Shown: one piece after another, positions 1,611 to 11,046 of the stretch | Numbering within the stretch: position 1 is the stretch's first letter | Layout: every line of letters starts with the position of its first letter | Source: Eledone cirrhosa | Taxonomy: Eukaryota | NCBI GenBank assembly: GCA_964016885.1 | Contig: CAXHJY010000593.1 | Location: 124,001-188,000, forward strand | DNA: 64,000 nt | Direction of reading: 5' to 3' | Made by a program: the position numbers and the translations under genes | Notes under the pieces: generated by a model | What the model saw: the letters and a program-made list of their open reading frames with translations, nothing else | What the model was told of the DNA's origin: nothing | Databases searched by the model: none

Positions 1611-2058
1611 GTAATAATAATGAAATTGAAGACTAAAATCTAGAGAGGGCTCGATAAGGAAAATATATATCAAATATATAAGAACCGAAGAGCAAATATT
1701 TATTAAAATAACAGATTAAAGTTTAAGCAAAGAATCGCTGCTTTCACCCTTAACGGGATCTTCTGAAACTAACAAAGTCAATCTGTAAACGCAGAACTGG
1801 ATATTTCAAAAAACGTTGCAACCGGAGGAAGACAGGAAGACGATACTTTGGTTCATGGTGACGTTCGCTGGCAAAGAACGGGTGCCAGCGAACGTCACCA
1901 TGAACCAAGGTATCGTCTTCCTGTCTTCCTCCGGTTGCAACGTTTTTTGAAATATCCAGTTCTGCGTTTACAGATTGACTTTGTTAGTTTCAGAAGATCC
2001 CGTTAAGGGTGAAAGCAGCGATTCTTTGCTTAAACTTTAATCTGTTATTTTAATAAAT
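1611..2058. mobile_element. Penelope-like element terminus with inversion (176-bp inverted repeat arms)
   Basis: Arms 1698-1873 and 1883-2058 are reverse complements (one mismatch seen) with a 9-nt loop. It has a hammerhead-like fold followed by AATAAA and is flanked by (TA)n. Confidence 0.7.
1970..2045 (+). ncRNA. type I hammerhead ribozyme-like fold, non-canonical core CAGAAGA (mirror copy on - strand at 1711-1786)
   Basis: agttt-CAGAAGA(1991-1997)-tccc gttaa gggt-GAAA(2011-2014)-gca..tgc-T-T-aaact. Stem I is extended by acagattga/ttaatctgt. Confidence 0.6.
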
Positions 2059-3396: not shown

Positions 3397-5140
<1,744 letters not shown>

Positions 5141-8095: not shown

Positions 8096-8211
8096 CGGGA
8101 TTTAATCTGTTATTTTAATAAATATTTGCTCTACGGTTCATATATATTTGATATATATTTATCCTTATCGAGCCCTCTTTGGATTTTAGTCTTCAAATTT
8201 ATTATTATTAC
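8096..8211 (-). mobile_element. fragment of the 1611-family Penelope-like terminus
   Basis: Reverse complement of 10736-10851 and similar to 1611-1720. Confidence 0.75.
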
Positions 8212-8286
<75 letters not shown>

Positions 8287-10668: not shown

Positions 10669-10735
<67 letters not shown>

Positions 10736-10908
10736 GTAATAATAATAAATTTGAAGACTAAAATCCAAAGAGCGCTCGATAAGGATAAATATATATCAAA
10801 TATATATGAACCGTAGAGCAAATATCTATTAAAATAACAGATTAAATCCCGTTAAGGGTGAAAGCAGCGATTCTTTGCTTAAACTTTAATCTGTTATTTT
10901 AATAAATA
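10736..10908 (+). mobile_element. 1611-family Penelope-like terminus with short inversion, retaining only the 3' half of the hammerhead
   Basis: Same left part as 1611-1720, then tcccgttaagggtgaaagcagcg...aataaat identical to 1998-2058. Confidence 0.72.
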
Positions 10909-11046
10909 TATATATACATATATATATATACATATATATAGATTTTGAGTGAATTAACAACCCAGCAAGGAACTGGGCATATCAGAGTATTGACAATATC
11001 ATACACCTAAACAACATATGTACTTGTCTATACCATACTAATTCAA

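Follow-up and report, generated by a model that had tools for sequence, protein, structure and literature searches.

What does it mean when a short palindrome places a hammerhead-type fold on each of its strands, and when both copies of that fold break the same rule of the hammerhead core? This is the situation at positions 1611–2058 of a 64,000-nt stretch of Eledone cirrhosa DNA (the window), where two inverted arms carry the core CAGAAGA, with A at position 4 (A4), in place of CUGANGA. A sequence-only reading of this locus considered the core either a natural variant or a dead copy, and proposed that transcripts of the palindrome could form a long double-stranded RNA. Here, we describe the element from which the palindrome derives, the history of A4 in its family, and the readings of the motif that follow from them.

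An inverted insertion of a Penelope-like element

The two arms (1698–1873 and 1883–2058) are reverse complements over 176 bp, with complementarity at 175 of 176 positions (the single mismatch is 1847/1909), separated by a 9-nt spacer. The inverted repeat had thus been read correctly, while the supposed loop (1874–1882) is part of the left arm, which continues through it with nine more bases of the element. This arm also extends 87 bases outward to 1611, resulting in an asymmetric insertion of 1611–2058 that is flanked by (TA)n on both sides. The left and right arms are joined bluntly, without microhomology, and the right arm differs from the copy at locus L032 at one of its 176 positions. On either strand, the whole palindrome is predicted to fold into a single hairpin (about −320 kcal/mol). 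Its features are as follows, with distances counted from C3, the first base of the core.

1331–1610, no strand: (TA)n target tract left of the insertion
1611–1882, minus strand: left arm, a 5′-truncated copy of the element 3′ end (pLTR) that matches the L032 3′ region and tail; it includes the spacer 1874–1882 and stops at the long 3′ end of the element (about +156, counted from C3)
1611–1697, minus strand: one-sided 87-nt tail, spanning the short to the long 3′ end
1711–1786, minus strand: the same hammerhead fold as in the right arm, with C3 at 1765 and a predicted cut between 1725 and 1724
ending at 1868, minus strand: mirror of the splice acceptor remnant
1883–1888, plus strand: remnant 3′ splice acceptor (AG at 1887–1888) of a 717-nt intron, the GT–AG segment that is exactly missing from L061 and L108
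1883–2058, plus strand: right arm, a 5′-truncated copy running from −108 from C3 to the short 3′ end (+67 to +69)
1970–2045, plus strand: type I hammerhead fold with an A4 core, from the sequence and its predicted fold
1970–1978/2037–2045 and 1986–1990/2032–2036, plus strand: outer and inner stem I of this fold
1984–1989, plus strand: putative initiator-like transcription start, with A at 1986 (mirror at 1770, minus strand), at a family-wide hot spot of 5′ ends with an added G
1991–1997, plus strand: core, followed by the U·U pair 1998/2010, stem II (1999–2009) and GAAA (2011–2014)
2014–2030, plus strand: stem III, with a predicted cut after 2031
2059–2075, no strand: (TA)n target tract right of the insertion

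A first look across the 3.0-Gb genome gave 846 candidates for the arm, and the 42 matches reported are 99–100% identical to it. Longer loci place the arm at the 3′ end of a 3,259-bp unit, found in tandem and inverted arrangements, where it lies 3′ of a 709-aa open reading frame (ORF) and, in tandem copies, also 5′ of it. A non-LTR retrozyme (a non-coding tandem unit of a few hundred bases) is ruled out, as the arms are the ends of a coding 3.26-kb unit. The single ORF combines a reverse transcriptase (RT) with a C-terminal GIY-YIG endonuclease (YRDD at 346 and YIG at 598 of 709 aa) and contains the further motifs RLRWR (35), SDKT (114), CNCRNRADC (564), CDLC (662), and CKH (690). These correspond to the protein traits given for the Hydra clade in section 11 of PMC8557442, as excerpted: DKG changed to DKT, an RWK-type motif (here with R for K), CxCx5C, and CxxC and CxH replacing CCHH. 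Searches with the ORF returned no Pfam family at E 0.1 and no PDB sequence match, and 476 homologues at E 1e-20, the nearest database relatives being 40–56% identical. The likeness to the excerpted Hydra-1_Obim protein was judged by eye.

The element fits a Hydra-clade Penelope-like element (PLE), an assignment made by protein motifs and not by RT phylogeny. It shares with this clade the RT–GIY-YIG ORF, (TA)n targets, partial tandems, inverted 5′-truncated copies, a one-sided tail, and a pLTR hammerhead that often has a U10.1·U11.1 pair. The trait that is absent is the canonical form of that hammerhead, as the core reads CAGANGA in all subfamilies; the excerpts of PMC8557442 describe a canonical pLTR hammerhead as universal in the clade, but define the clade on the protein. 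Further differences from these descriptions lie in the length of the unit (3,259 bp, against generally less than 3 kb in the clade), the tail (87 nt, against 30–40 nt described for PLEs), and a 717-nt intron in the 3′ region. Since its hammerhead differs from that of Hydra-1_Obim, and since its stem II string was not found in the supplement of PMC8557442 as far as this was available, the present family is another one.

As a back-to-back insertion, the palindrome is ordinary; its layout is already known in kind and common in this genome. The sequence-only reading had recognized the hammerhead on both strands of a palindrome but missed that this is the standard inverted insertion of a PLE. Inverted 5′-truncated copies and one-sided tails are typical according to the excerpts of PMC8557442, which list Penelope-13_HM with an inverted 5′-truncated copy and a hammerhead on both strands; likewise, the PLE hammerheads in the available part of PMC4209133 include dual motifs on opposite strands, 100–700 bp apart. 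Among the first 100 exact matches listed here, 16 divergent pairs and one convergent pair lie within 5 kb, and three pairs are less than 300 nt apart, which extrapolates to roughly 500 similar short palindromes. Nine close divergent pairs retain both ends, and each of the nine combines an arm that stops at +68/69 with one that extends to +156 or further, the same two end points as in the present palindrome. Joins elsewhere in the family often use microhomology, unlike the blunt join here.

Such insertions could arise when the GIY-YIG domain cuts a TA tract and both DNA ends prime reverse transcription, each at one of two fixed positions, +69 and +156; the two copies would stop early and then be joined back to back. 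The Anolis Poseidon element PAc is comparable in this respect: according to the excerpts of PMC11167929, it cuts and extends both DNA strands, has uncut RNA as its main template, uses two internal RT start sites that define the tail, and inserts into AT-rich targets. It differs in having a canonical, protein-assisted hammerhead that overlaps the ORF start, whereas in the present family the ATG follows about 200 nt downstream of C3. In itself, the palindrome is of little importance; the point of interest is its A4 hammerhead.

Inversion junctions are also found within the motif. At about 900 loci (including L301–L320), the junction is centred exactly on core position 4, so that one strand reads a canonical CUGAAGA that lacks the 5′ strand of stem I. 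In a family with a canonical core (L026, L052), the join of back-to-back copies likewise lies close to where stem I begins.

A hammerhead fold with A at core position 4

Reading outward, both arms contain CAGAAGA, U, CCC-GUUAA-GGG, U, GAAA, stem III, CUU, and the 3′ strand of stem I. Three stems surround the core, with stem I open (5 + 9 bp in stem I, 3 bp in stem II, and 4 bp in stem III), and the GAAA, the C3–G8 pair, the A15.1–U16.1 pair, and the NUH triplet (CUU) are all present. The initial description of the core, the U·U pair at the base of stem II, and the CUU triplet holds in both arms (C3 at 1991 on the plus and 1765 on the minus strand); its stems and GAAA are in place as well, but it overlooked the outer 9-bp extension of stem I (1970–1978 with 2037–2045). 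Because position 4 is A, we file the motif as a variant of the hammerhead fold and not as a canonical type I member. The Rfam hammerhead model has no match at its gathering score in the window. Like the PLE hammerheads of PMC4209133 (as far as excerpted), which showed low activity in vitro, the motif folds as type I and lies within the pLTR in the same sense as the ORF; it differs from them in its core variant (U3–A8 there, A4 here) and in its full 4-bp stem III with a 9-nt loop, which is not the minimal dimer type.

In energy models, the hammerhead fold lies 2.8 kcal/mol above the predicted minimum-energy fold. The inner part of stem I has a predicted pairing probability of 0.05, and a natural copy with U at position 4 (U4) also reaches just 0.07. 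The models do separate the two in the mispairing of C3 with G12, predicted at 0.40 with A4 versus 0.02 in the U4 copy, and A4 is predicted to add a pair to a competing helix between UUUCA and UGAAA.

The core is best judged against those of the element's relatives. All 26 published Hydra rows (File S2 of PMC8557442, in the part available) have CUGA and G16.2, and 14 of the 26 have the U10.1·U11.1 pair. Among 77 metagenome loci with related proteins, many of them near-duplicates, a hammerhead was called at 58: 53 read CUGANGA, two UUGANAA, and one each CCGANGA, GUGANCA, and UAGANAA, the last being a threshold-scoring call inside an ORF and probably due to chance. The U·U pair occurs in 21 of these 58 calls and a G-U-H triplet in 56. 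An A4 core was found neither in the 26 available Hydra rows nor behind the ORFs of the 77 loci. The U·U pair noted in the arms is therefore real but normal for the clade, while A4 and the swap to a G15.2–C16.2 pair (CAGA with C16.2, against CUGA with G16.2 in the Hydra rows) are the departures of this lineage.

Known natural core variants are rare and of reduced activity (U4C in a viroid, A6C, and U15.1–A16.1 in the excerpted PMC3088659, where a U10.1–U11.1 mismatch is described as tolerated). A difference is that the excerpted text of that paper, figures aside, does not name U4A and reports no variant fixed in tens of thousands of copies. The texts of the literature searched, taken without figures, contain no report of this family or of a U4A hammerhead, so that an A4 hammerhead fold that is fixed and constrained in a very abundant family would be new as far as that literature extends. 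Other variant cores lie beside related metagenome ORFs, namely G3–C8 (L253:2602), U3–A8 (L292:1938), and U4C (L241:2168).

Within the genome, exact 30-mer counts give A at position 4 in 18,366 cases, T in 72, and C in 42, and four copies with intact ORFs of 708–709 aa carry CAGAAGA. CAGAAGA is thus the state of the family and not a private change against a CTGAAGA consensus. This bears out the earlier proposal that the change predates the inversion, and family-wide fixation excludes a dead copy in the sense of one that decayed privately.

A4 also predates the youngest copies. The young, middle, and old subfamily sets have median divergences of 2.5, 7.5, and 12.5%, and patterns that leave position 4 free found A in 29 of 31 and 88 of 93 matches to older subfamilies. 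Since the first old-subfamily patterns had the stems fixed, the test was repeated with arms picked on the 3′ tail alone (56 old arms, taken from two sets of 79 and 115 matches, the first 30 loci of each). Of these arms, 42 reach position 4, which is A in 36, T in five, and a gap in one; G15.2 is kept in 50 of 50 and C16.2 in 53 of 54. Among the 35 columns that are paired or in the core, one differs between old and young subfamilies, as opposed to 11 of the 21 columns in the bulge, the loops, and N7 (Fisher p 2e-5, a value that overstates independence because the subfamilies share ancestry; the 11 include one column of CpG decay and two or three noisy columns). N7 is the sole core position that changed; G5, A6, G8, and A9 stayed the same, as did stem III and the two parts of stem I, and the outer stem I with its internal bulge is conserved in the old subfamilies. 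A4 is fixed across three subfamily ages, and the pattern of constraint follows the hammerhead fold.

An ancestral U4 subfamily was looked for and rejected, as the 72 U4 copies come from a mixture of subfamily backgrounds, judging by the 27 loci viewed. A looser pattern with 972 U4 matches did not reveal a U4 lineage either: each of the 20 matches examined is an inversion junction with its centre at position 4, a site at which TTC-A-GAA pairs with its own complement. These 20 junctions mark the quasi-palindrome at position 4 as an inversion hot spot, and a flip at this site is a plausible origin of A4. With no U4 lineage found, the direction of the change, from U to A, is drawn solely from the outside relatives.

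Two other accounts of A4 were rejected. As a splice acceptor (TTTCAG), it should join recurrent element-derived exons, and none was present in the first 100 of 1,423 rows; the sole recurrent string upstream of TTTCAG belongs to a non-coding derivative, and the real acceptor lies at −103. As for further A4 families, a search for other A4 cores in the genome gave 1,901 matches versus 195 for a control, some of the listed strings being RT coding sequence; 20 loci were viewed, and each is either a junction or a lone copy from a canonical family.

Transcript anatomy and the fate of the A4 motif

The ends of truncated copies give a view of the RNA from which they were made. A non-T base six positions before C3 occurs in 2,210 matches, and a hand count of the first 100 gives 53 G, 24 A, and 23 C, some of the C being an old-subfamily allele. 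Of 49 unbiased arms, four have a non-T base at this position, all of them truncated there with a G. This makes it likely that a capped transcript starts at the first base of inner stem I, five bases before C3. The start-site context, TTAGTT (TCAGTT in old subfamilies), is presumably initiator-like. An internal, TATA-less promoter is known for Penelope itself (excerpts of PMC2377424). Start-site ends are found in 8 of 29 U4 copies versus 12% (p 0.018), a comparison in which the copies are non-independent and some are junction artefacts.

Besides this start, the element contains a 717-nt GT–AG segment in its 3′ region (L032:6046–6762) that ends at −103. It behaves as an intron: L061 and L108 lack exactly this segment, while the 67 arms examined keep the acceptor unspliced. 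The two copies imply that spliced RNA running through the uncut motif is also copied.

How well such a motif cuts can be anticipated from mutagenesis. A full pairwise scan of a type III hammerhead found low activity in every single or double mutant of the CUGA turn apart from the C–G swap (PMC9901934); together with the predicted C3–G12 mispairing, this leads us to expect weak activity. Weak hammerheads can nevertheless be used: the excerpts of PMC3088659 describe U4C as weak in vitro yet able to support a viroid, and those of PMC11167929 describe a PAc hammerhead that cuts only with protein present.

In the genome, apparent 5′ junctions at the predicted cut number 136, versus 54 at a control position two bases away, of 28,860 arms, and 13 of 30 examined cut-site junctions share 2–4 nt of microhomology with the inverted partner. 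A control family with a canonical core has 11 comparable rows (hand count, 83 rows) versus 1,710 copies. The resulting rates, about 0.6% in the control and 0.5% in the present family, do not separate the two, and a separate hand count (8 of 100 rows, with the positions on either side of the cut taken together) agrees.

We give an even chance to the reading that the A4 motif is a selected but down-tuned ribozyme, cutting slowly or only with help of the element's protein. A4 would weaken the uridine turn and is predicted to favour the competing helix, so that most RNA would escape cutting and could serve as template; selection on the fold would be maintained by residual cutting or by cutting that the protein assists. 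The viroid U4C and the protein-dependent PAc hammerhead are its precedents. Against it, roles other than catalysis could account for the constraint: the competing helix is by itself predicted to hold C3, A4, U11.1, G12, A13, and A14, and the motif begins at the putative transcription start. Cut-site 5′ junctions are rare in the family, though no rarer than in the canonical-core control. In addition, selection for cleavage need not exist at all, since hammerhead-dead PAc mutants did not lower insertion in vitro (PMC11167929, as excerpted).

A close rival, with a tentative but substantial claim, keeps the same element and layout and takes the motif as catalytically dead, retained as a structural RNA or DNA signal: a 5′ leader fold at the start, a protein-binding site, or a promoter, with loss of cleavage harmless or even helpful. 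It would account for the position of the motif right at the putative start, for spliced copies made from RNA that passed through it uncut, and for a competing helix, created by A4, that is predicted to bury the GAAA. The low activity of CUGA-turn mutants, which second changes do not rescue (PMC9901934), points the same way, as do the unaffected insertion of PAc hammerhead mutants and the Naiads, which thrive without canonical hammerheads in the excerpted descriptions. A purely structural role, in turn, poorly predicts that G5, A6, G8, A9, stem III, and stem I stay constant while N7 and the loops change. The bases at +28 to +32 from the putative start do not match what we take to be the DPE consensus, which counts against this rival.

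Further towards activity lies the more doubtful idea of an active A4 hammerhead with a swapped 15.2–16.2 pair, selected through several waves of expansion, in which A4 would form an off-switch helix that the element's protein undoes. Were this true, the active A4 variant would extend the allowed hammerhead core and directly test the purpose of Penelope hammerheads. Full activity of the motif, with A4 compensated by the G15.2–C16.2 swap, the U·U pair, or contacts between loop II and the bulge, is improbable. A4 and a CUU triplet with G15.2–C16.2 do co-occur and persist here, against G16.2 in 26 of 26 available Hydra rows and 56 of 58 metagenome calls, and the outer stem I with its bulge is kept. 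The pairwise mutagenesis of PMC9901934, on a different (type III) scaffold, shows no rescue of the CUGA turn, and an efficient ribozyme should leave few uncut templates, whereas tens of thousands of copies span the site. We regard it as very improbable that the motif is a neutral relic, killed by A4 long ago with too little time for visible decay: few subfamily generations were sampled, and they go back to a single common ancestor, but change at 11 of 21 free versus one of 35 constrained positions, in copies picked without regard to the core, largely refutes it.

We give almost no credence to a function of this particular palindrome as long double-stranded RNA, whether as ADAR or Dicer substrate or as a ribozyme switch. 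A read-through transcript would form the 176-bp hairpin, but it would have to come from outside, since the putative starts at 1986 (plus strand) and 1770 (minus strand) appear to face outward and would give single-arm RNAs. No arm hyper-edited from A to G is present among 338 arm alignments. The palindrome is also very young, with its single mismatch between the arms, and is one of hundreds of by-products (three pairs less than 300 nt apart per 100 listed matches, and about 900 more inversions at position 4).

The role of hammerheads in endonuclease-bearing PLEs is stated to be unclear in the excerpts of PMC8557442. The present family is a natural experiment on this question: it is young and abundant, has intact ORFs, and breaks a core rule, kept in all the published Hydra rows available, while retaining the fold across subfamilies. 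Natural copies with U4 (L087) and C4 (L107) are ready controls. If the A4 motif cuts, descriptor searches that require CUGANGA miss a high-copy class; if it does not, the fold would prove to be kept for a non-catalytic job.

Several related sequences accompany the family. A second abundant Hydra-like family (L032:7914–8507 on the minus strand, and L126–L155) shares about 40–55% protein identity in blocks, and its motif UUGAGAA is the known U3–A8 core with a poor stem I. A non-coding derivative with tandem units of about 170 bp and a truncated core (GGTAGAAGA) is present at L194 and L216–L220 and makes up 5 of 100 rows among the matches listed. At L025 and L033, an insertion of the present family lies beside a 310-bp tandem array whose hammerheads have the canonical core CUGAUGA. 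GCTC...GAGC hairpins lie just past both 3′ ends of the element (L032:3677–3720 and 3767–3782; 1645–1690 of the window, minus strand), each beginning with a similar TTTG(G)CTC(C)TTCGGTT string. Within the window, positions 1–976 hold the frameshifted 3′ end of a LINE-type reverse transcriptase, which we take to be RTE-like, and a repeat at about 1100–1330 ends in (GAT)n directly before the TA tract. Another short inverted insertion of the same Penelope-like family, with an older tail type, occupies 10726–10909, and fragments at 8096–8221 and 3620–3677 share its junction and look like local duplicates.
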